Positions 3,264 to 39,520 of a stretch of DNA of 39,520 bases are shown here, in pieces. Made by a program: the position numbers and the translations under genes. The notes under the pieces were generated by a model. The model searched no databases and had not been told where the DNA came from. It saw nothing but the letters and a program-made list of their open reading frames with translations. Source of the stretch: a virus. Location of the stretch: UHGV virus genome UHGV-0819691; one strand, 5' to 3'. Numbering within the stretch: the stretch's first letter is position 1; each line of letters opens with the position of its first letter.

Positions 3264-4622
3264 TTGTTTGGTATGATTAAAAAAATTAAGAGCGACAGAC
3301 ATTTATTTATTGTTTTATTTTGTATTTTTGTATTTATGCTTATTTTGAATAGTATGTCCCCTTTGGTACACGACGATTATTCTTATTTTGTAAAAACCTC
3401 AAGTATAAAAACAATTTTATCTGACGAATATCAACAATATATGACATGGACTGGTAGATCAGTAGTCCACGTTATTTTTCGCTTTTTTACTAAACTACCA
3501 AAAATATATTTTAATATATATAATTCTTGCATGTTTTCTATATTGGTTTATCAAATTATTATGTTTTCTTCCATAATAAAAGATCGGGCTACTAAAAATG
3601 TTTATCTAAAAGGGTTTATCATATTTTCATTAATGTGGATATTTACTCCAGCTTTCAATAATGTTTACTTGTGGATGGCTGGTTCTGTGAATTATCTCAC
3701 TGCAATGGTCATTATGTTATCTTTTATTCTGGTTTACCATCGATATATAACAGAATCTAAAGAACAAAATAATAGTTTTTTTAAGACAATAGGGATGCTT
3801 CTTTTGGGAATAATAGCTGGTTGGTGTAATGAAAATACCTCTGGAGGCACATTGTTCATTGTTGTAGCATATACTGCTCTTTCGTATTTTTATAAGAATA
3901 AAAAAATAGAAAAATGGATGATTGCTGGTATTGTTGGAAATATTGTAGGTTTTCTTTTTATGGTAATGGCACCTGGCAACGACATCAGGGCTACTTATTT
4001 TGATAGAAGTAATCTTTCAATCTTTTGGAAAATTCTTGATGCAATACCTGCAATCAGTCGTGCATTACAGGAAAATGCAATGTTTCCTCTAACGATAGCA
4101 TTAGCTTTGATTGTTTTATCATACTTAAATAGTAGTTTAACAATTAGTAATATTTTAAGTTCATTGTTTTTCGTTGGTGGCATATTGACAATAGGAGTTC
4201 TTACTATTTCTCCAACCGCGTTATCTTGGTCTAGGTCTTATTTTGGGGGGATTATTTTTATTTTCATATCTATAGTAATTAGTCTTTTTGAATTGCTAAC
4301 AAATTTTGATAAAATCAATAAAGTTGTTTTTTCTATGATCTTCAGTTATTTAATGATTAGTTTTTTATTACTTTTTTTCAATGGAACTGCTGACATATAT
4401 AAAAACTATGTAAGTTACAATAATCAAAATGAATCTATTAAAAGGCAAATTAAGAATGGTGAAATGGATATAGTTGTTCCACCATTAAATTACAAGCCAC
4501 AAACTATTTATCCAGTTTACAATGGTAATGATATTACTTCAGATAAAAATAATGAGAGAAATAGAAGTGTTGCTGCATATTGGGGAGTGGACTCTATTAG
4601 GGTAGAAGAAAAAGAAAAATAG
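3264..4622 (+). CDS. Polytopic membrane protein (452 aa, ~11-13 TM), GT-C-fold-like putative glycosyltransferase; lysogenic-conversion moron
   Basis: RBS AAGAGGAG. First TM is followed by an extracytoplasmic HDDYSY (DD motif), as in GT-C glycosyltransferases (ArnT/PMT/GtrC-like). Very AT-rich relative to neighbours, with its own promoter. Inserted between holin and endolysin. Confidence 0.4.
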   Translation: MFGMIKKIKSDRHLFIVLFCIFVFMLILNSMSPLVHDDYSYFVKTSSIKTILSDEYQQYMTWTGRSVVHVIFRFFTKLPKIYFNIYNSCMFSILVYQIIMFSSIIKDRATKNVYLKGFIIFSLMWIFTPAFNNVYLWMAGSVNYLTAMVIMLSFILVYHRYITESKEQNNSFFKTIGMLLLGIIAGWCNENTSGGTLFIVVAYTALSYFYKNKKIEKWMIAGIVGNIVGFLFMVMAPGNDIRATYFDRSNLSIFWKILDAIPAISRALQENAMFPLTIALALIVLSYLNSSLTISNILSSLFFVGGILTIGVLTISPTALSWSRSYFGGIIFIFISIVISLFELLTNFDKINKVVFSMIFSYLMISFLLLFFNGTADIYKNYVSYNNQNESIKRQIKNGEMDIVVPPLNYKPQTIYPVYNGNDITSDKNNERNRSVAAYWGVDSIRVEEKEK

Positions 4623-4746: not shown

Positions 4747-5766
4747 ATGAAAAAGAAAATTACTATTACTGCGATGAGCCTATTAATGGCTCTTTTTTTA
4801 TTGCCAATTAATGGATTTGCCTATACGATCAACAATGAATTTAATTTAGGTGTAAATGAAGGTAGCTCACAAGTAGCAAATAATCAGTATATTTTACTGC
4901 ATGAAACGGCTAATGAAACAGCAACAGGACGCAATGAAGCGCAATATATGCAACGTTCATGGACTAGTGCTTATACTGCTTATATTGTGGGAGACGGTGG
5001 AATTGTTTACCAAGTTGGACAACCTGGTTATGTACAGTACGGTGCTGGTTCGTATGCTAATGCTAACAGTCCCGTGCAGATTGAGTTACAACACACACAT
5101 GATAAAGCGACGTTTGAGAAAAACTACAAGGCATACGTTGAATTGGCTAGATATTCAGCAATAAAATATGGTATTCCACTAACATTGGACACGCCTTATA
5201 ACCAACCAGGAATCAAATCGCATTTATGGGTAACACAAAATATTTGGGGCGATCATACAGATCCTTACGGTTATCTTTCTGAAATGGGCGTAAGTAAAGA
5301 AAAATTAGCATATGATTTAGCTCATGGATTTACCGATGAAAATCCGACAACTTCAGATGATAAACCAGTCATTGATCCAACTCGAGCAGGTGCTGCAAAT
5401 TCTACGCTGACAGATGGAACAAATTACGCCCACATTGATCAGTTTGGAGAAATCGAAAACGCAAACTTGCATGTGGCTGGATGGCACATTGCTAACTATA
5501 AATACGAGTATATTTTCATTATGGACTACAATACTGGGAAAGAATTAGCTCGAGTAAGAGCTGATGGAATTTATAGACCAGATGTAAACCAAGCTTATAA
5601 TACTTCTGGAAATGTTGGTTATCATGTATCTTTCAATATGCGTAATTTTCCTAATAAGAAAGTCTATGTAATGATGCGGGCAACGAATGATCCAGAAGGG
5701 AACACTAAAGGCGGAGCACAAGATTTTCATGATAAACGCTGGTATTTAAATATTCCGCAACGATAA
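4747..5766 (+). CDS. Endolysin: N-acetylmuramoyl-L-alanine amidase (Amidase_2 / T7-lysozyme fold) with an N-terminal signal peptide and a C-terminal cell-wall-binding region
   Basis: RBS AAAGGAG. N-terminus MKKKITITAMSLLMALFLLPINGFA is a Sec signal. Catalytic block LLHETAN...SPVQIELQHTHD...WGDHTDP aligns motif-by-motif with PlyG/T7 lysozyme (ITVHNTYN...ISVEICY...HQSWSGKYCPHR). Follows the holin. Confidence 0.75.
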   Translation: MKKKITITAMSLLMALFLLPINGFAYTINNEFNLGVNEGSSQVANNQYILLHETANETATGRNEAQYMQRSWTSAYTAYIVGDGGIVYQVGQPGYVQYGAGSYANANSPVQIELQHTHDKATFEKNYKAYVELARYSAIKYGIPLTLDTPYNQPGIKSHLWVTQNIWGDHTDPYGYLSEMGVSKEKLAYDLAHGFTDENPTTSDDKPVIDPTRAGAANSTLTDGTNYAHIDQFGEIENANLHVAGWHIANYKYEYIFIMDYNTGKELARVRADGIYRPDVNQAYNTSGNVGYHVSFNMRNFPNKKVYVMMRATNDPEGNTKGGAQDFHDKRWYLNIPQR

Positions 5767-5772
5767 AAAAAA

Positions 5773-5789
5773 GCCCCTCGATGAGGGGC
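5773..5789. terminator. GC-rich hairpin GCCCCTC-gat-GAGGGGC preceded by an A8 run; transcript boundary after the lysin
   Basis: 7-bp perfect stem. The A-run lies on the 5' side, so it is a classical terminator for leftward transcription and a weaker stop for the + strand. Confidence 0.4.
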
Positions 5790-6022
5790 GGTACTTGGAA
5801 TCATATATAACATTTTTGTTACAAATTTATTGTCATATAAATTAAAAAGTGTTGTTTTAATATCATAAACGTTTAACTTGAACTTACGTTCCCTATGTGT
5901 TAAAGTAACTCCATAATCCTCAAAGATTATATTTGCCGATGGAAGCCTTAGGACCCTTGTTTTTAAGGCTTTCTTTTGATTTAATTAAAAGGGCAAATAT
6001 ATTAATTTTGGAGGTAATTGTT

Positions 6023-6961
6023 ATGACAACAAAAACAAAAAATTTACATTTTTTTCGATTGGAATTATTGAGATTAACTGAAGATAGAAATGGAGATTCT
6101 GTGATGTCTCCACTAAGTATTAAGGAAAAAAATATATATTTAGATGATTTAGTTAAGAATCATTTAAATAGTAATAATGCCTTGAAAGTAAAAAGGTATG
6201 ATAGCAATTCAACAAAAGAAAAATTTGCTTCTGTTGAAATAATTACTTCAAATGAATATTATGTTTTTGGTAAGATGGGAAAAGAACAAGATATTAATCA
6301 ATTTCAAATTAGAAAAAACGATTCTTTAGAATCAAGGTTAATTTCGAAAGAATCTGATGAATTATTTGAAGCATTTTCATATTTCCTTATTGATAAAAAA
6401 ACTTTTGCTGTAACATATATTAAAGAAAAAGTGGCTCCAAACATTTCTTATTTAAGTGATATGTTTACACAAGAATTTAAAGATAGTAATAAAATATGGG
6501 GGAAAACAATTGTATTAATGGATGAAGATGCAATTGATAAACTAAGCCGAAAAAAAGTTATTGGTACTATTGAGTATGAATTAACTCTTCCAGCCGGTAC
6601 TCACAAAGAAATAACAGGTCTGAGTGAAGACGAATATATCTTATTACAAAATCAAAAACATATTAAAACATGTGTAAAATTAGTAACTGATAGCAGGAAG
6701 AATTCTGTGTTTGATAGTTATGAAAAAGCTAAAGAATTCTTTAGTAAATTTAAAAGTAAAAATATTAATCTTAAAGTAAAAGCTAAAGACGACGAAGATG
6801 ATATAATGCAAGAGTTCAAATTATTAAATGATAATTTTACAAAAAAAGCAAAATTTAATTATGATACAAGCAAAACTGCAAATGATTTGCAAGAAGAAAT
6901 TGAAAGTCAGATGTGGATTCAGTTCAAGAAAAACGAGTCGGATATATTGAGTTATATATAA
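6023..6961 (+). CDS. Hypothetical cytoplasmic protein (312 aa, Lys/Glu-rich, no TM); first gene of a two-gene moron
   Basis: RBS GGAGGT 7 nt before ATG 6023. The annotated 5933 start lacks an RBS. AT-rich. No recognisable catalytic motif. Confidence 0.5.
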   Translation: MTTKTKNLHFFRLELLRLTEDRNGDSVMSPLSIKEKNIYLDDLVKNHLNSNNALKVKRYDSNSTKEKFASVEIITSNEYYVFGKMGKEQDINQFQIRKNDSLESRLISKESDELFEAFSYFLIDKKTFAVTYIKEKVAPNISYLSDMFTQEFKDSNKIWGKTIVLMDEDAIDKLSRKKVIGTIEYELTLPAGTHKEITGLSEDEYILLQNQKHIKTCVKLVTDSRKNSVFDSYEKAKEFFSKFKSKNINLKVKAKDDEDDIMQEFKLLNDNFTKKAKFNYDTSKTANDLQEEIESQMWIQFKKNESDILSYI

Positions 6962-6979
6962 GGCAGGAGGGAATATCAA

Positions 6980-7426
6980 ATGGAGAGAAGGAGGAAGGAT
7001 CGAGACAAAATTAGTTGGGGAATAACTATTATAAGTATAATTATAGCTACTATAGTTTTTTTCTGCAGAAAAAAAGTAACTATACGAGAACTTGACGAAT
7101 TATATAACTTGCTTACTATAAATACTATATTTGCTGGTTTCTTATATTCCATGCTTGGCAATATGGTAGAATTTTCAATGAGACCTGAGGTTAAAGAAAG
7201 AGACAAAGCGGGATATATAGAATCTTACTTCTCACCTATATATTTTGGTTTATTTTTCTTTTTATTTTCTATAGTGATTGAAGTTTTACTAATATTTTTT
7301 AATTTTAAATTCTTTATGTCGTTTTTTATCTATGCCCAAACTTGTACCTCGTTAATAGGTATAGTATTTTTTATATATAGTACAATACGTTTAAGAAAAA
7401 TGATAAATAACGTTCGTAACCACTAA
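6980..7426 (+). CDS. Small membrane protein (148 aa, four predicted TM helices); second gene of the moron
   Basis: RBS AGGAGGG 6 nt upstream, 18 nt after the previous stop, so translationally coupled. TM segments near residues 13-30, 44-63, 86-108 and 122-135. Confidence 0.5.
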   Translation: MERRRKDRDKISWGITIISIIIATIVFFCRKKVTIRELDELYNLLTINTIFAGFLYSMLGNMVEFSMRPEVKERDKAGYIESYFSPIYFGLFFFLFSIVIEVLLIFFNFKFFMSFFIYAQTCTSLIGIVFFIYSTIRLRKMINNVRNH

Positions 7427-7436
7427 AAAAGACCTC

Positions 7437-7470
7437 AACCAATCATCCTTGGCTGAGGTTTTTTCATTTT
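7437..7470 (+). terminator. Rho-independent terminator closing the moron operon
   Basis: ACCTCAACC...GGCTGAGGT stem (one mismatch) followed by TTTTTTCATTTTTT. Confidence 0.55.
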
Positions 7471-7510
7471 TTCTGAAAAAGTTAAGCAAATAATAGACTA
7501 AAAAAAACTA

Positions 7511-7593
7511 TGTGAGATAATAAACATAGAAAAAAGCTTCAGATACCTCCTAACCCTAGAGTCTTTCCCCAAAAGATAAGTATCTGAAGCTTT
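7511..7593 (+). repeat. Hairpin element copy 1: TGTGAGATAATAA motif plus a 14-bp perfect stem with a 33-nt loop containing TCCCCAAAA, followed by a T-run
   Basis: Motif at 7511-7523. Stem AAAGCTTCAGATAC (7533-7546) pairs with GTATCTGAAGCTTT (7580-7593). A-run before and T-run after. Paralogous to 8056-8134. Confidence 0.5.
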
Positions 7594-7776
7594 TTCTTTT
7601 TATGACTTAGAAATAATAGCATAAAATAATATATTCTACAAAGAATAAGTACAACCTAGTTTTTTGCTATTAAATATGTAATAATAAAGATGCCACCGCA
7701 ACGTAAAGAATGAAAAAAATAATTTATCTTTTCTCAGGTCCATTCTTTTTGTTTGCAGGAGTTGTGGTGGCTTTCC

Positions 7777-7850
7777 GTACCCTTAACTCAGTTGGTTAGA
7801 GCAGACGGCTCATAACCGTCCGGTCGTAGGCTCGAGTCCTACAGGGTACA
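7777..7850 (+). tRNA. tRNA with CAT anticodon (elongator Met or Ile2-lysidine type), 74 nt, CCA not encoded
   Basis: Manual cloverleaf: acceptor GTACCCT/AGGGTAC; D-arm ACTC-AGTTGGTTA-GAGC (one A·C mismatch at the first D-stem pair); anticodon arm GACGG-CTCATAA-CCGTC; variable CGGTC; T-arm GTAGG-CTCGAGT-CCTAC; discriminator A. G1-C72 is paired, so not an initiator. Confidence 0.8.
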
Positions 7851-7925
7851 TTAATGTAGCCAATTGAATCGTTCTGTGTTAGAATTTTTTGAAGAGTATT
7901 ATACAAGCTAAAGCTTTTCTTCATT

Positions 7926-7949
7926 GCCACTCAAATGAGTGGCTTTTTT
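7926..7949 (+). terminator. Rho-independent terminator downstream of the tRNA
   Basis: GCCACTC-aaat-GAGTGGC followed by TTTTTT. Confidence 0.65.
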
Positions 7950-8055
7950 ATGTATCCTTTTATGGATTAATGAAAGGATGTTTCACATAGTTATACTTCT
8001 GTATATTTGAAAAGTTTTACTTTGATTTTTAAATAGAAAGACATTTGGGTTATAT

Positions 8056-9248: not shown

Positions 9249-10385
9249 TTACGAATTCTTTCTCAGATTTTCCATGATATCGACCGTTTCATTTCTCATC
9301 TTATCTGTTACATGCGAGTAAGTATCCATCGTAATTGAAATTCTGCTGTGGCCCAATCGTTCAGAGATTTCTTTCATTTTTGCGCCATTTTCGAGAAGAA
9401 GTGTAGCATGAGTATGTCTGAGAGAATGGAAGTTAAAAGAGAGGGAGAGTGCATTCGATATCCTCCTAGTATTCCATTTCACTACACTTGGCGTAACTAG
9501 CTCACCGTCTTCCTTCGTACATACTGCATTTGAATCAATGTAGAGCTTTCCATACTTCATTCGATTTTCTAATTGTTGTTTCTTATGTTTTTTCAGAATT
9601 GCTAGCAAGGTTTGTCCAATAAAAATCGTTCGATTGGAACTGCTTGTCTTTGGCGTACCATATACCCATGCGCCGTCATTCTTTACCATTTGTTTCTCTA
9701 CAGTAATTGTTCCATTTGAAAAATCGACATCATCCCACGTCAGACCACAAACTTCGCCAACGCGCATTCCCGTATAAAATCCAACATTCAAAGGAATATA
9801 GAAAGGATGTCCTTCAGGAGTAATTTCTAGCATATGATCAAAGTCCTCAAGAGAAATGATTTTTAGATCTTTTTTAGTCGTTGGTCGTTCTTCGTATTTT
9901 GGTATCTTTACATACAGCATAGGATTTTGCTTGATTAACCCCCAAGGATAAACCGCCATATTCAGCGCATTCTTAAGGACAGAGTGAGTAATAGTCATTG
10001 TTTTCTTCGAGTAACCCTTTTTAAATTCATCATTGATGAAATTTTGCAAAAGAGCAGGGGAGAGATCCGTAAGTTTTTTCTTTCCTAAATAACCATCTAT
10101 ATGATTTTTGATGGTAAATCGGTAGTTTTCATAGGTATTGTATTTTAGATTTAGTTTAACGTATTCCTCCATCCAAAAATCAAGGTATTGTTTTACTCGA
10201 GTATCTGTACCTAAAAAATATTGTCCTGTTTCGTCAATATCTGATAAAATTTTTCGTAAAGTAGCTTCTGCATCTGCTCTAGTATCTCCACCAACTTTTT
10301 CCACTTTTTTTCTTGAGCCATCATCATTGATGTCTTCAAAATAATAATACCAACGTTTCCCGCGTTTTCTCACACCGCCACGCAT
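9249..10385 (-). CDS. int: Tyrosine site-specific integrase (378 aa)
   Basis: C-terminal catalytic signature (R near residue 207), HSLRHTHAT (HxxR), and LGHSRISITMDTYSHV with the nucleophilic Tyr. N-terminal SAM-like/arm-binding region. Confidence 0.9.
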   Translation of the reverse strand: MRGGVRKRGKRWYYYFEDINDDGSRKKVEKVGGDTRADAEATLRKILSDIDETGQYFLGTDTRVKQYLDFWMEEYVKLNLKYNTYENYRFTIKNHIDGYLGKKKLTDLSPALLQNFINDEFKKGYSKKTMTITHSVLKNALNMAVYPWGLIKQNPMLYVKIPKYEERPTTKKDLKIISLEDFDHMLEITPEGHPFYIPLNVGFYTGMRVGEVCGLTWDDVDFSNGTITVEKQMVKNDGAWVYGTPKTSSSNRTIFIGQTLLAILKKHKKQQLENRMKYGKLYIDSNAVCTKEDGELVTPSVVKWNTRRISNALSLSFNFHSLRHTHATLLLENGAKMKEISERLGHSRISITMDTYSHVTDKMRNETVDIMENLRKNS

Positions 10386-10581: not shown

Positions 10582-11202
10582 TTAATTAGGTAAGTTATCG
10601 ATAGCATATTGTGCTTGCTCGGTCGTATATTTTTCATATACCAATTGGTCATAAAGACCATCTTTAGAAAAAGCAGAATAATCTAAATAGTCTTTAGCAG
10701 CTTGAAGTGCATTCTCGTTCCAATCTGCGTTAACATTATCAATAGCATATTGAGCTGCATCAGCAGGGTACTTTTCATATATCAATTGATCATAAAGTCC
10801 CTGCTGAGAAAAAGCAGAATAATCTAAATAGTCTTTAGCAGCTTGAAGTGCATTTGAAGATTCAAGCGATACATCGTTAGAAGTTGATGATTCCACTGAT
10901 GAATCAGAAGAAATGGATGGATTGCTACTTTCTTCTAATGTAACTGATGTAGAAGTTGATGAGTATTGTGATTCGCTTAAACTAGAATATTCAGTATCGG
11001 AGATATTTTCCGATGTGGATGACTCGGTTTGGCTTTTAACAGTATTATCATCTCCACCACTTAATGCACCACCAACGATGAATACAACCAGAACCACAAG
11101 AATCCAAAACCAAACTCTTTTATAAAAAGGTTTTTTCTCCTTCATTACGTAAGTTTTTCCATCTTCCCCTGTAACTTTTTTCTTCACCATTTTTTCCTCC
11201 AA
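10582..11202 (-). CDS. Ltp-like superinfection-exclusion protein (206 aa): N-terminal TM anchor, Ser/Thr-rich linker, two tandem Ltp-type repeats
   Basis: Two ~48-aa repeats ALQAAKDYLDYSAFSxxGLYDQLxYEKY..AQYAIDN match the repeat-domain pattern of the Streptococcus thermophilus TP-J34 Ltp family. A TM helix (WFWILVVLVVFIVGGALSG) replaces the usual lipobox Cys. Canonical position between int and repressor. Confidence 0.65.
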   Translation of the reverse strand: MEEKMVKKKVTGEDGKTYVMKEKKPFYKRVWFWILVVLVVFIVGGALSGGDDNTVKSQTESSTSENISDTEYSSLSESQYSSTSTSVTLEESSNPSISSDSSVESSTSNDVSLESSNALQAAKDYLDYSAFSQQGLYDQLIYEKYPADAAQYAIDNVNADWNENALQAAKDYLDYSAFSKDGLYDQLVYEKYTTEQAQYAIDNLPN

Positions 11203-11256
11203 AAATTAAATGATTTACTCCCATTTAAAGGCAGGCAGTGATAGTCGCCATTAATA

Positions 11257-11285
11257 AAAAGAAAAGCCCGAAGGCTGATCTTCAA
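11257..11285 (-). terminator. Second copy of the AGCC-TTCG-GGCT minus-strand terminator repeat
   Basis: AAAAGAAAAGCCCGAAGGCTGATCTT shared with 10518-10543. Confidence 0.35.
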
Positions 11286-11320
11286 TGTAATAATTCAGTC
11301 ATTTTTTTTCGAACAAAAGT

Positions 11321-12385
11321 CTATAGAAATTTTTGAACTATATCAGTAATTTGTTTTGAATAGCTATAAATGTCTATAGGCTCTTTCAACTCATAAACTG
11401 TATGATTATCATCGTTTAATTCAATTTTCATTCCATTTGTATTGAAACGAACTCTTAGAATCCATTTTCTGATATTGTCATCTAATAATATATTGAAGTA
11501 ACTTCTGTTGTCTCGATAGAATAATCGGTCTAAAGGAATAGTATCTACTAAAACAACTTTACAAATAGTATAGGCCTCTAATTCTTCAGGAGTGGTAACA
11601 ATTTCACTATCAGTTTCATCTGTTGTATCAGAATCTGATTTAGTTTCTGTATCCTCAACAGTAACCGATGTTTTCAAAGCAGCGCTTAATTTATCATTAA
11701 CTTTTTCAGCGATAAATTGGTTTAATCCTTTTTTTATAATTGGTTTAAATTTTTCAATAGTTTGCTTTGTTTTCATTCCGTCATAAATTTCGCCAAGAAG
11801 ATATTTGACAAAATTTTCCGTTGGTTCGTTTAGCTCAGAAGACAGGTAAGCCTTTAATGAATTTAAGTATTTAAGTTCTGCTGCAGAACTTGTAATCTTG
11901 TCTACGTCGAAATTGTCTTTATGAAATTTTGCTAACTCTGGAAGTTGGCTGTCTTTAATTTTTGTAATATTAATAGTTAAAAAAGGAGTAAGATCCATTT
12001 TATTTGGTTCGTCTAAATCAGTAAAGAACTTGTATTCCTCGCCGTTCGTCAATATACCAAATTTAGAAGTAGTGGTTCCAAAATATCTAAATAGTTGAGA
12101 ATCATGTTTTGTTAACTTTTCATTGATCGATTTTGCTTCTATAAGTATAGTTGGTTGCCCGTCAAGAACAATTGCATAATCAACTTTTTCGCCTTTCTTT
12201 ATACCTACATCAGCAGTAAACTCTGGTACAAACTCTGTAGGATTAAACAAGTCATAACCAAGTGCAACAAAGAAGGGCATAATTAATGAGGTTTTTGTTG
12301 CTTCTTCTGTACCAATACTATCTTTTAATTCAACCACTCTTTTACCTAATTGTTTCAAGCTATCTTGAAATTTTTCCATTTCCAT
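11321..12385 (-). CDS. PD-(D/E)xK nuclease-fold protein (HsdR_N / Mrr-like N-terminal domain) with an uncharacterised C-terminal domain (~355 aa)
   Basis: RBS AGGAGG 7 nt before ATG 12385, with a second ATG 2 codons later; the annotated 12496 start has no RBS. Motif ...VDYAIVLDGQPTILIEAKS (D...E-A-K) is the PD-(D/E)xK core, as in the type I HsdR N-terminal domain. Confidence 0.5.
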   Translation of the reverse strand: MEMEKFQDSLKQLGKRVVELKDSIGTEEATKTSLIMPFFVALGYDLFNPTEFVPEFTADVGIKKGEKVDYAIVLDGQPTILIEAKSINEKLTKHDSQLFRYFGTTTSKFGILTNGEEYKFFTDLDEPNKMDLTPFLTINITKIKDSQLPELAKFHKDNFDVDKITSSAAELKYLNSLKAYLSSELNEPTENFVKYLLGEIYDGMKTKQTIEKFKPIIKKGLNQFIAEKVNDKLSAALKTSVTVEDTETKSDSDTTDETDSEIVTTPEELEAYTICKVVLVDTIPLDRLFYRDNRSYFNILLDDNIRKWILRVRFNTNGMKIELNDDNHTVYELKEPIDIYSYSKQITDIVQKFL

Positions 12386-12523
12386 GATGAAACCTCCTAA
12401 TAGTATTGCTCCCACTAAGGCAGGGAGCGATAGTCTTCCCAACAAAAAGTATTTGAATTTATGTAATCGCTTTCCCCGCAAAGTCAAAAAATTCAATACT
12501 TAATTATTCAAACATTAAAAATT

Positions 12524-12961
12524 TCAAATTAAAAATTTATAAGCATCTTTCGGAAGTCCATATAGTTTAGTCAATAAATCAACTTCTCTTGGAAATTGAT
12601 CCGTGTCATCTTTGTAAAGAGAAACGATGAGATTAGCAGCAAAGCAATTTGCCTCACTCTCTGATTTGCTCCTAGATAATCGTGTAGAGACGTAATAGCT
12701 AGATAGTTCTTTGTGAAAAAGGGCATGGCCAAGTTCGTGGGCGCAAATATAGAAACGCTCTTCGGAGTACTTAAGACTGTCATTTAAAAAGATAATAGGT
12801 TCGTCTAAAATTTCCTGAAATTGTCCTTTTGGGTTATTTAGAAAAAGAACAAATTCTACGCTTATGCCCATTTTTTCACAAATTATAAAAGGATTAGCGG
12901 ATTGATATTTCCGCTTTAAATCTCCAACTAGATTTACTACATCCAACTCCATACAAATCAC
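12524..12961 (-). CDS. ImmA/IrrE-family metalloprotease (anti-repressor protease of the lysogeny switch)
   Basis: HEXXH motif CAHELGHALFH. Immediately downstream of, and co-oriented with, the XRE repressor, as in the ImmR/ImmA pair. Confidence 0.75.
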   Translation of the reverse strand: MICMELDVVNLVGDLKRKYQSANPFIICEKMGISVEFVLFLNNPKGQFQEILDEPIIFLNDSLKYSEERFYICAHELGHALFHKELSSYYVSTRLSRSKSESEANCFAANLIVSLYKDDTDQFPREVDLLTKLYGLPKDAYKFLI

Positions 12962-12972
12962 TTCACTTCACT

Positions 12973-13356
12973 TTACTTTTTCTTCCTTTTTTTTATATCC
13001 CAGAATGTCGCTGTAAGGATATCTTTTACTCGTTGAATTTCTTCAGGTGTTAAAGTTTCACCACCGTAAGCCATGTTCACGTTTGATTCTAATAATTTAT
13101 CTAGCTCGATTAAATCATTCTCATTAGCCCAATCAGGGATAAGCTCCACGTTAACGGGTGAATTCTCTTCGAAGTAGGAAATAGACACACCTAAAGCAAC
13201 TGATAGTTTTTTTAAAGTTTCTAAAGTTGGATCTTTTCGTTCACCTTTTTCAAATCTAGATATTTGAGAAGCGCTTACTCCAGATTTTAATGCTAACTGA
13301 TTAACTCCTAATCCTCTAGAGGTTCTCAATTCTTTTAGTTTTTCTCCAAACTCCAT
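12973..13356 (-). CDS. XRE-family HTH repressor (CI/ImmR-like, 127 aa)
   Basis: HTH_3 signature LKELRTSRGLGVNQLALKSGVSASQISRFEKGER. Divergent from the cro-like gene. Confidence 0.8.
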   Translation of the reverse strand: MEFGEKLKELRTSRGLGVNQLALKSGVSASQISRFEKGERKDPTLETLKKLSVALGVSISYFEENSPVNVELIPDWANENDLIELDKLLESNVNMAYGGETLTPEEIQRVKDILTATFWDIKKRKKK

Positions 13357-37810: not shown

Positions 37811-39520
37811 ATGATCGATAATTTAATAACTATTTACGATAAAAATGACGCGAATAATTTAGCTGAACATTTATATGATACGCAAGGTTTAGGTGCTTTA
37901 TCAGACTGGTTAACAGCTACTGTTAGCAATAAACTAAACGGAGCCGAGATATTTCAGGGTACTTATCCAATAAGCGGAACTAATGCAGATTTGATTGTAG
38001 AAGGACGTATAATTCAGTGTTATGTAGATGAAAATCGAGCAAAACAACGTCTACGGATCTATTATGCAAAGACTTCTGTAATAGGAAATACGATAGAAGT
38101 AAAAGCTGAACCTATTTTCAATGATATAAGAAAATCGGTGTTGAATAAATATGACAGCGGAACAGAAAAAATCACTGCTACTCAGGCATGGCAAAATGCA
38201 AAAGTTTTAGCAAAACCAGCTATTCCTTCGCAGTTTTCTTTCTCATCGTTAGTAGATACGCTTGCTAATGTGAAGATAGAAAAAGCGAATTTTTTAGAAT
38301 TCTTTGGTGGAAAAGAGGGATCTATTCTAGATCGATTTCATGGTGAATTTCTAAAAGATAATAACACATTACGTCATGAAAAAAGTCTAGGTACGGATCA
38401 TAAAATCAAAGCGATTTATACTAAAAACTTAACTGGTATTGACTTAGAGATAGATGCTCAAAGTGTTTTAGTTGGAGTTTATCCATTCATTAGCAGCTCT
38501 TCAGAAGGAGAAGACGAGATCACTCTACCAGAAGAAGTTATTTTCACGGATTACGTGGATGATTATCCTGCTGGATATGTTTCTTTTGTTGATTTTAAAG
38601 ACAAAGCGACTGATGTAGCCACATTAAGGGAAGCTGCTAAAGACTGGTTGAAAACAAACATAGATAAACAAAAACCACAAGTGAGTGGTTCGATTGAATT
38701 AGTACCATTGAGGCATCAAAGAGGCTATGAAAAATTTGTTGATCTAGAAAAAGTTTCGATGGGCGACGGAGTAGATGTGTATCATCCACAGTTAAAAGTG
38801 AATATGTCAGCGAGAATCGTGGAATATACGTTTAATGTTTTAACTAATTCATACGATAAATTAGTTGTAGGAAACGTCAAAACAAACTTCTTAGAAAATA
38901 CAGAGAATAATGTAAGCAATTTGATTAATGATGCCATTGATCAATTGAAAAATGGTGGCGAAATCAGTGATTTAATCAATGATATTGTAGATCATCAAAC
39001 TGATATAATTACTGGCCAAGATGGTGGGTATGTTTTATTAGATCCTAAAGAAGCACCTAGTCGTATTTTGATTATGGACACGCCAGATAAGAATACTGCA
39101 CGGAACGTTTTACAAATCAACAACGCTGGTATTGGTTTCTCTAAAACTGGCATTAATGGAACGTATGACACCGCATGGACGTTAGATGGCGGATTCAATG
39201 CCTCGTTTATTACAGCTGGTGAGATAGTAGGGATTACTATTAGAGGTACTACATTAATTAGTGATGGCACTGATTATAGAACAAGTATTGCTAATGGCAA
39301 AATGACTTGGTATTCAAAAAAAGTTAACAAAGATATTATGGAGCTAGAAGCACGTGATTATGTAAGTGCTGATGCCGGTATTGTATCATACACCATGAAA
39401 ACTGGTGGTGGTTTCATGATTAGAAATCCACAAGGTAACTTGGTTTTTAGTACGTGGGATAATGGCAATAACAGACCGTTTTTATCTTTTGGTGCGCCCA
39501 ATTTCAGGTATAGCAACGCT
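37811..39520 (+). CDS. Tail-associated lysin / prophage tail endopeptidase (Tal), N-terminal ~570 aa, runs off the right edge
   Basis: RBS AGGTGAAATAG before ATG 37811. No stop in the window. N-terminal region resembles the phage minor structural protein / tail endopeptidase family. Confidence 0.6.
   Translation, partial: MIDNLITIYDKNDANNLAEHLYDTQGLGALSDWLTATVSNKLNGAEIFQGTYPISGTNADLIVEGRIIQCYVDENRAKQRLRIYYAKTSVIGNTIEVKAEPIFNDIRKSVLNKYDSGTEKITATQAWQNAKVLAKPAIPSQFSFSSLVDTLANVKIEKANFLEFFGGKEGSILDRFHGEFLKDNNTLRHEKSLGTDHKIKAIYTKNLTGIDLEIDAQSVLVGVYPFISSSSEGEDEITLPEEVIFTDYVDDYPAGYVSFVDFKDKATDVATLREAAKDWLKTNIDKQKPQVSGSIELVPLRHQRGYEKFVDLEKVSMGDGVDVYHPQLKVNMSARIVEYTFNVLTNSYDKLVVGNVKTNFLENTENNVSNLINDAIDQLKNGGEISDLINDIVDHQTDIITGQDGGYVLLDPKEAPSRILIMDTPDKNTARNVLQINNAGIGFSKTGINGTYDTAWTLDGGFNASFITAGEIVGITIRGTTLISDGTDYRTSIANGKMTWYSKKVNKDIMELEARDYVSADAGIVSYTMKTGGGFMIRNPQGNLVFSTWDNGNNRPFLSFGAPNFRYSNA

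Follow-up and report, generated by a model that had tools for sequence, protein, structure and literature searches.

A candidate RexAB-type gene pair with its own structured leader in a temperate Enterococcus phage

Only five Rex-like systems have been described, all of them from Proteobacteria or Actinobacteria according to PMC12894663. Known examples include RexA/RexB of phage lambda (PF15969/PF15968; PDB 8TWQ), RexABpp of the Pseudomonas putida prophage P1 (PP_5643/PP_5644; Sci Rep 2026, PMC12894663), and the actinobacteriophage pairs Sbash gp30/gp31, CarolAnn gp44/gp43, and Butters gp30/gp31. Here we analyze a pair of genes, A and B, in UHGV virus genome UHGV-0819691, a complete, circularly permuted 39,520-bp genome of a temperate Enterococcus phage that is referred to in its entirety as the window. 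A first-pass annotation of this DNA had described the pair as a RexAB-like moron. On balance, we favor the reading that A and B are a moron with a role in phage exclusion (abortive infection), namely a two-component cassette of the RexAB type; we infer this defense function by analogy with lambda RexAB and with the P. putida, Sbash, and CarolAnn systems, which have been tested experimentally.

Both open reading frames (ORFs) lie where they were first placed, and A is, as described, a Lys/Glu-rich soluble protein (13.8% Lys, 8.7% Glu, 8.0% Asp) with no hydrophobic segment. The mechanical ORF list opens A at TTG 5933; the start was set instead at 6023, at an ATG eight bases after GGAGG (6010–6014), because all close homologs have the conserved N-terminus MxxKxKxIHFF. 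An exhaustive profile search collects an A family of 190 clusters at 50% identity (E ≤ 1e-3), nearly all of 300–330 amino acids, and its named members all come from Bacillota or their phages (Enterococcus, Carnobacterium, Exiguobacterium, Criibacterium, Peptococcaceae, and Caudoviricetes).

Structure prediction, which had been proposed as a check on the first-pass annotation, returns RexA as the best match in the Protein Data Bank (PDB) for A and a four-helix bundle for B. The other structural neighbors of the A model, RdgC, IML3, CHL4, and 3oh8, are the same set that the RexA structure paper names for RexA itself. The predicted secondary structure of A comprises the four-strand/four-helix dimerization domain of RexA and its kinked C-terminal helix, and together with a split globular β-sheet domain these elements make up the two-domain fold of RexA and RdgC. 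Sequence comparison points in the same direction: hhalign of an 84-member A profile against the single RexA sequence yields an E value of 6e-5 over 206 collinear columns, and the A profile matches RexA in HMMER with an E value of 8e-8 (a one-target test); these profile alignments span ~210 residues. A and RexA are ~13% identical. The PADLOC RexA model is matched by one of the 84 family members (1.7e-5) and Pfam RexA (PF15969) at E ≤ 0.01 by none of them; lambda RexA, the positive control, matches PF15969 at 1e-97.

Both A–RexA alignments pair the RAKD sequence of RexA (residues 219–222) with KAKD of A (residues 253–256), which is among the best-conserved motifs of the A family (Ala in 64/84 members, Lys/Arg in 76/84). 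In RexA, the double mutant of R219 and K221 has lost DNA binding. R97, E116, P139, and P190 are near-invariant in the family, and the AK motif at 254–255 is conserved. Because the fold, the profile alignments, and the KAKD/RAKD motif agree, A is treated here as a remote homolog of lambda RexA, an assignment that we consider very likely. The only low-confidence part of the A model (predicted local distance difference test score, pLDDT, <50) is the segment of residues 90–109 (nucleotides ~6290–6349), which includes R97, the most conserved residue of the family (81/84), as well as D90 and L102; on the basis of the model, this segment is a candidate interaction surface in the form of a conserved flexible loop. 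DUF6731 matches 7 of the 84 family members, distant relatives of A, and adds no functional information.

The AlphaFold2 (AF2) model of B (pLDDT 83.1) has helices at residues 2–29, 38–66, 86–107, and 113–146, and the four peaks of the hydropathy profile match these helices, in agreement with the four transmembrane (TM) helices that had been predicted. Both termini are basic and, judging from the charge distribution, probably cytoplasmic. In the family alignment, TM2 and the loop that follows are almost invariant (YNLLT-N-xF-GF-Y-MLGNMVEF-x2-R...D-x-AGY...SP-YF). The hydropathy layout of B superimposes on that of lambda RexB, with TM1, a gap of ~15 amino acids, TM2, a charged loop of ~20 amino acids containing ‘GY’, and TM3 and TM4 back to back, and B is, like RexB, an inner-membrane protein of ~145 amino acids with four predicted TM helices. 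The sole stretch that hhalign aligns between the two (B 73–82, ERDKAGYIES, with RexB 74–83, KIREYGYMTS; E 0.68, not significant) is topologically equivalent: in each protein it belongs to the central cytoplasmic loop and immediately precedes TM3. The only match of B in PHROGs is a weak one to the uncharacterized phrog_17119. A search of BFVD, a collection of viral predicted structures, with B found uncharacterized proteins only, which is uninformative since RexA is absent from the BFVD matches of A as well. The PDB holds no RexB structure, and PDB sequence searches with the profiles of A and of B gave nothing meaningful.

The two genes behave as one unit. In the window they are co-oriented and separated by 18 nucleotides with no overlap, and B has its own Shine–Dalgarno sequence, GGAGGG, at 6966–6971, which corrects the translational coupling proposed earlier to close linkage. 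Co-occurrence in other prophages, another check that had been suggested, was found at 10/10 intact loci, in each of which a B-family gene follows the A homolog directly, with a gap of −8 to +45 nucleotides. The downstream proteins are multi-TM, 150–162 amino acids long, and match the B-family hidden Markov model (HMM) with E values from 4e-12 to 1.5e-62. Pairing holds down to 28% identity of A to the window protein, and the pairwise identities of A and of B across loci are strongly correlated (Mantel r 0.946, reached by 0/5000 permutations). Several Enterococcus genomes have integrated prophages that encode the identical A protein, followed each time by the 148-amino-acid gene. In BFVD, a single uncultured phage, ctylc9, provides both the top-ranked match to B and the second-ranked match to A. 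The pair is thus adjacent in every homologous locus examined, far beyond chance, and has the conserved arrangement of a RexA-like gene followed by a co-oriented four-TM gene that serves as the operational definition of RexAB-type pairing (PMC12894663). The only A seen next to anything other than an intact B is a decayed copy behind an Amidase_2+GW endolysin (L018, 5969–6612), in which A is intact and B is reduced to a 58-amino-acid fragment (B HMM 4e-22).

Table 1. Positions of the A–B pair, its predicted control elements, and flanking features in the window
Feature	Position	Strand	Description or basis
Endolysin	4747–5766	+	Amidase_2; phrog_2338 at 9e-84
GC-rich hairpin after endolysin stop	5773–5789	.	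−13.8 kcal/mol; marks left edge of slot
Cargo cassette (promoter, leader, A, B, terminator)	5795–7650	+	Homology breakpoints
Probable sigma-A promoter, TTGAAC-17-TAAAGT	5878–5906	+	Positional conservation in 9 distinct cassette copies
Structured 5′ leader	5908–6008	+	RNAalifold, pair counts, covariance model
Gene A	6023–6961	+	312 amino acids, soluble, RexA fold; predicted DNA-binding sensor/activator
Gene B	6980–7426	+	148 amino acids, four-TM inner-membrane protein; predicted effector
Intrinsic terminator closing A–B	7432–7472	+	Hairpin 7432–7459 plus T-run
tRNA-Met	7777–7850	+	Just 3′ of the cassette; conserved in related phages

The pair appears to be transcribed from a promoter of its own. 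Other copies of the cassette mostly carry TTGACC-17-TATAAT (the copy in L004 scores 11/12), and the window sequence is probably a weakened version of it, whose promoter role is suggested by this conservation. The promoter named in the first-pass annotation, TTGATT-16-TATATT at 5976–6003, is probably not the right one: its 9/12 match is at chance level (27 such matches found versus 26.6 expected), it lies inside the conserved structured leader, and the conserved promoter is located ~100 nucleotides upstream of it. A GAACGTTC palindrome, a possible operator, lies within the promoter spacer of the copies in L004, L010, and L018.

The leader that follows folds into a small invariant hairpin, P0 (5913–5918/5925–5930), and an outer stem, P1 (5931–5938/5991–5998), enclosing an inner hairpin, P2 (5941–5954/5959–5974), that is variable in sequence, terminator-like, and followed by a U-run; the P2 region has a folding energy of −15.4 kcal/mol (z −3.2). 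The two arms of P1 change together (TTTGCC/GGCAAA, TCTGCTA/TAGCAGA, and TAAGCT/AGCTTA), and 11 leader pairs change on both sides. For a structure derived from, and tested on, the same nine sequences, 92.7% of leader cells are paired, compared with 83.3% in shuffles (0/500) and 40–50% with the partners slid. The leader covariance model finds one match per cassette (78–98 bits), upstream of every A homolog of at least 36% identity, and nothing significant elsewhere in 417 kb, which include phages with other cargo in the same slot; no Rfam family matches the leader. The leader hairpin resembles an intrinsic terminator; by attenuating transcription into A–B, it would hold a potentially toxic pair at a low, fixed dosage. 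Being conserved and covarying, the leader may represent a new cis-regulatory RNA that controls a toxic module.

At the 3′ end of the pair, the hairpin expected from the first-pass annotation is present, with a folding energy of −16.9 kcal/mol (z −3.9) that is equaled by 0/200 shuffles; an A-run on its 5′ side suggests that the terminator is potentially bidirectional. The hairpin that had been taken for the upstream terminator of the operon is also real, but it has a T-run solely on the minus strand, and it is assigned to the endolysin module because the homology to three related phages runs through it to 5794.

These three relatives, the Enterococcus phages vB_ElaS_B1578, EH-TP1, and 4995_1 (L001–L003), have the endolysin and tRNA region in common, match the window up to 5794 and again from 7650/7777, and carry other genes or nothing in the slot between. 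Conversely, L012 has a different endolysin but matches positions 5767–7995 directly behind it (96% identity), the breakpoint coinciding with the stop codon of the endolysin gene. The pair follows an Amidase_3+CW_7 endolysin in L025 and a Glucosaminidase endolysin, beside a serine integrase, in L027; in all, three unrelated endolysin types precede it, and elsewhere it sits before the terminase. This second hotspot, in prophages of E. faecium and Carnobacterium, lies between RusA or a late regulator and the small terminase. For the allele found there, P0020, the index of the sequence collection lists 953 blocks; the six places examined are all E. faecium-type prophages (6/6). The operon is as AT-rich as had been noted (24–29% GC over 6001–7500, compared with ~35% for the window). 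With its own predicted promoter and terminator, its deviant GC content, and its presence or absence among homologous phages, the pair bears the marks of a moron, and the earlier placement at a moron hotspot is borne out both by the relatives that swap other cargo into the slot and by the pre-terminase copies. Sequence comparison indicates that A–B moves as one unit between two prophage moron hotspots. In vB_ElaS_B1578 (L001, 4940–6645) and EH-TP1 (L002, 5232–6640), the slot is filled by genes for a RelE/ParE toxin, an XRE regulator, and a SecB-like chaperone, apparently a toxin–antitoxin–chaperone cassette, whose presence confirms that the slot is an accessory-module hotspot.

The circular permutation of the window follows from a gene for a 763-amino-acid Prophage_tail-type protein that runs across the end-to-start junction (37811–39520 joined to 1–582); once joined, the two parts match an uninterrupted stretch of L015 prophage DNA at 99.9% identity. 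Gene order in the left part is tail, holin, DUF6056 membrane protein, endolysin, A, B, and tRNA-Met, the holin being of the Holin_BhlA type as called in L015 between the tail and DUF6056 genes. To the right of the tRNA-Met gene, homology to integrated copies breaks off at ~9158, which marks the attP side, and is followed by the integrase (9249–10385, −). Past the integrase come genes for an Ltp lipoprotein, an HSDR_N/PD-(D/E)XK protein, ImmA (12524–12961, −), and an XRE repressor (12973–13356, −), the last two thus beyond both attP and the integrase, and then YqaJ/RecT, terminase, portal, capsid, and tape measure. In the integrated copies that encode the identical A protein, the pair follows the endolysin and forms the host-proximal prophage end. 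The pair, placed between lysin and prophage junction in the first-pass annotation, lies between the endolysin and the tRNA-Met/attP/integrase region; the window is a complete permuted phage rather than a chromosome segment that ends in a prophage. A placement of the pair outside the prophage, with the integrase to its right, was rejected on the evidence of the tail gene that crosses the window ends.

Several neighboring features deserve mention. The endolysin begins with a signal-peptide-like hydrophobic segment, MKKKITITAMSLLMALFLLPINGFA, which suggests that the enzyme is secreted or signal-anchored. Between holin and endolysin, positions 3264–4622 (+) encode a polytopic membrane protein of 452 amino acids (DUF6056/GT_STM0557_N; GC 28–29%) that PHROG connects weakly to O-antigen conversion of the GtrB type, and this gene may be a cell-surface-modifying moron. 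At the position homologous to that of the tRNA-Met gene, phage 4995_1 (L003) has an annotated tRNA-Ile gene (5217–5290). A second accessory island (10582–12496, −) is located between the integrase and the ImmA/repressor genes; it carries the Ltp-type surface lipoprotein (PF07553, 9e-36) and the HSDR_N/PD-(D/E)XK nuclease-like protein of 391 amino acids. Ltp-type lipoproteins are a family of known superinfection-exclusion proteins.

If A–B acts as a RexAB-type exclusion cassette, the cassette would be transcribed at a low level in the lysogen, with most transcripts ending at the leader hairpin, and A would be present as a cytoplasmic DNA-binding dimer. A trigger from a superinfecting phage, either one of its proteins or an intermediate of replication or recombination, would change the state of A, and A would then activate B. 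Opening of the membrane by B, or damage to it, would lead to loss of membrane potential and ATP, and the infection would abort. The polar face of the invariant TM2 of B (N43, T46, N48, N61, and E64) is a candidate pore lining, and its invariant cytoplasmic loop (R68...D75-x-A-G-Y79) is a candidate docking site for A.

A number of observations weigh against the exclusion reading. Curated libraries are silent on both proteins, as the failure to assign either to a known family by motif had foreshadowed: A has no match in Pfam, NCBIfam, PADLOC, or PHROGs, and B none in Pfam (RexB PF15968 included), NCBIfam, or PADLOC. The hhalign comparison of A with RexA reaches a probability of only 65%; for the B family and RexB the probability is 0.07%, and phmmer finds nothing. 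The RexAB likeness first proposed stands for the remote homology of A and for the size and topology of B, and does not extend to detectable sequence homology between B and RexB. The pair also lies away from the repressor, which is past attP, unlike the arrangement in lambda. Finally, DNA binding by lambda RexA does not correlate with exclusion according to PMC11077077, so that the conserved motif of A does not by itself argue for defense.

The roles of the two proteins could also be the reverse of those proposed, with soluble A as the toxic or antiviral effector and membrane-bound B sequestering and silencing it until infection. PMC12894663 ascribes such reversed roles to the Rex-like pair gp30/gp31 of mycobacteriophage Butters, and a toxin/keeper pair would account just as well for A and B being strictly inherited together. 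The same paper, however, has the membrane protein as the effector in four of the five described Rex-like systems, and the most conserved parts of B, a polar TM helix and a loop, suit a channel better than a passive anchor; we therefore regard reversed roles as improbable, if the least improbable of the alternatives. Slightly less credit is given to a role in the development of the phage itself, in which A would bind DNA non-specifically and modulate recombination or the lysogeny/lysis switch, through the second function of RexA or an RdgC-like anti-RecA activity, and B an accessory. Such a role is compatible with the RexA/RdgC fold and conserved DNA-binding motif of A, with the location of the pair between early and late genes in many E. 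faecium prophages, and with the statement in PMC11077077 that lambda RexA biases the switch to lytic growth independently of RexB. It is harder to reconcile with a promoter, leader, and terminator that insulate the pair from neighboring operons, with the lack of linkage to a repressor, with the dispensability of the pair, which toxin–antitoxin-like genes replace in close relatives, and with the loss of the membrane partner in only one decayed copy.

The proximity of the pair to the lysis genes raises the further possibility of a lysis accessory or addiction module, in which B would be holin/antiholin-like or toxic and A its regulator or antitoxin, acting in lysis timing or prophage stabilization. 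B is indeed a small multi-TM protein, the pair directly follows the endolysin in the window, L025, L027, and L018, and the same slot in relatives holds RelE/XRE/SecB-type toxin–antitoxin genes. Near-identical prophages, however, have dedicated holins upstream of the endolysin (Holin_BhlA, Phage_holin_Dp1), hundreds of E. faecium contigs have the pair upstream of the terminase and far from the lysis genes, its separate promoter and terminator make it independent of late transcription, and no lysis regulator is known to have the RexA fold that A has. Of the three alternatives we hold this one to be the most doubtful.

The exclusion reading is thus preferred, and A–B is most likely an unannotated Bacillota-phage example of the known RexAB-type class. 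From that class it departs in having its own predicted promoter and structured leader, in occupying other genomic slots, and in a B family without detectable RexB homology. It is conceivable, although we advance it only tentatively, that the Bacillota-phage family (~190 clusters at 50% identity) is a large and so far unrecognized branch of the Rex superfamily, in which a RexA-fold sensor acts through a membrane effector family of independent origin and expression is gated by a previously undescribed terminator-containing leader RNA, that is, a riboregulated abortive-infection switch not coupled to a repressor.

The searchable literature yielded no account of a Rex-like pair from enterococci or any other Bacillota, and the family would be the first Rex-like one in low-GC Gram-positives; the ‘Rex-like’ protein of an E. 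faecium paper is a redox regulator and irrelevant here. The pair is common in a clinically important genus yet invisible to Pfam, NCBIfam, and PADLOC, so that censuses of enterococcal defense and host-range predictions for phage therapy of vancomycin-resistant enterococci (VRE) are likely to miss it. A system of this kind is unsurprising in principle and directly testable. With it, the 70-year-old Rex problem gains a second, very divergent, and sequence-rich family, in which the conserved residues of A (R97, E116, P139, P190, and AK 254–255) and the TM2 and central loop of B offer specific targets for mutagenesis.

Among other known systems, RdgC (PDB 2OWL) scores below RexA as a structural match for A, which has no Pfam RdgC match, and RdgC is encoded by a chromosomal housekeeping gene with neither a membrane partner nor a phage context. 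Kiwa (four-TM KwaA plus DUF4868 protein KwaB) and the lactococcal Abi pairs, both of which join a four-TM protein to a soluble protein of ~310 amino acids, were rejected for want of HMM support; Kiwa, in addition, has its membrane gene first. The Sbash, CarolAnn, and Butters pairs resemble A–B by description: they are encoded by prophages of Gram-positive bacteria, they combine a soluble RexA-like protein with one that has four TM helices, and they have no obvious sequence similarity to lambda Rex. Their RexA-like proteins dimerize and bind DNA non-specifically, according to PMC11077077. These pairs differ from A–B in their high-GC actinobacterial hosts, in the larger size of the RexA-like proteins (337–372 amino acids), in the position of several beside the immunity repressor, and, for Butters, in the soluble protein being the effector.

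With lambda RexA/RexB, the window pair shares carriage by a temperate phage and the order of a soluble and then a membrane gene (312/148 versus 279/144 amino acids), RexA as best PDB match of the A model with a collinear profile alignment, the correspondence of the RexA DNA-binding pair R219/K221 to K253/K255 of A, and the four-TM hydropathy layout of B with its charged central ‘GY’ loop. It differs from lambda in the low identity of A to RexA, with no curated HMM match, and in B having no detectable RexB homology; in lying outside the immunity region, where it is not co-transcribed with the repressor; in its own predicted promoter and structured, terminator-containing leader; and in a low-GC Gram-positive host and a post-endolysin or pre-terminase slot. 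The proteobacterial RexABpp is set apart by its description as two genes downstream of a CI-like repressor, with no structured leader reported, whereas the window pair is neither adjacent to a repressor nor co-transcribed with one. The experimentally validated RexB-type protein of P. putida, however, likewise has no detectable RexB homology, and in fold, profile homology, motif, topology, and pairing the window pair has the features that define the P. putida ‘RexAB-type’ system.

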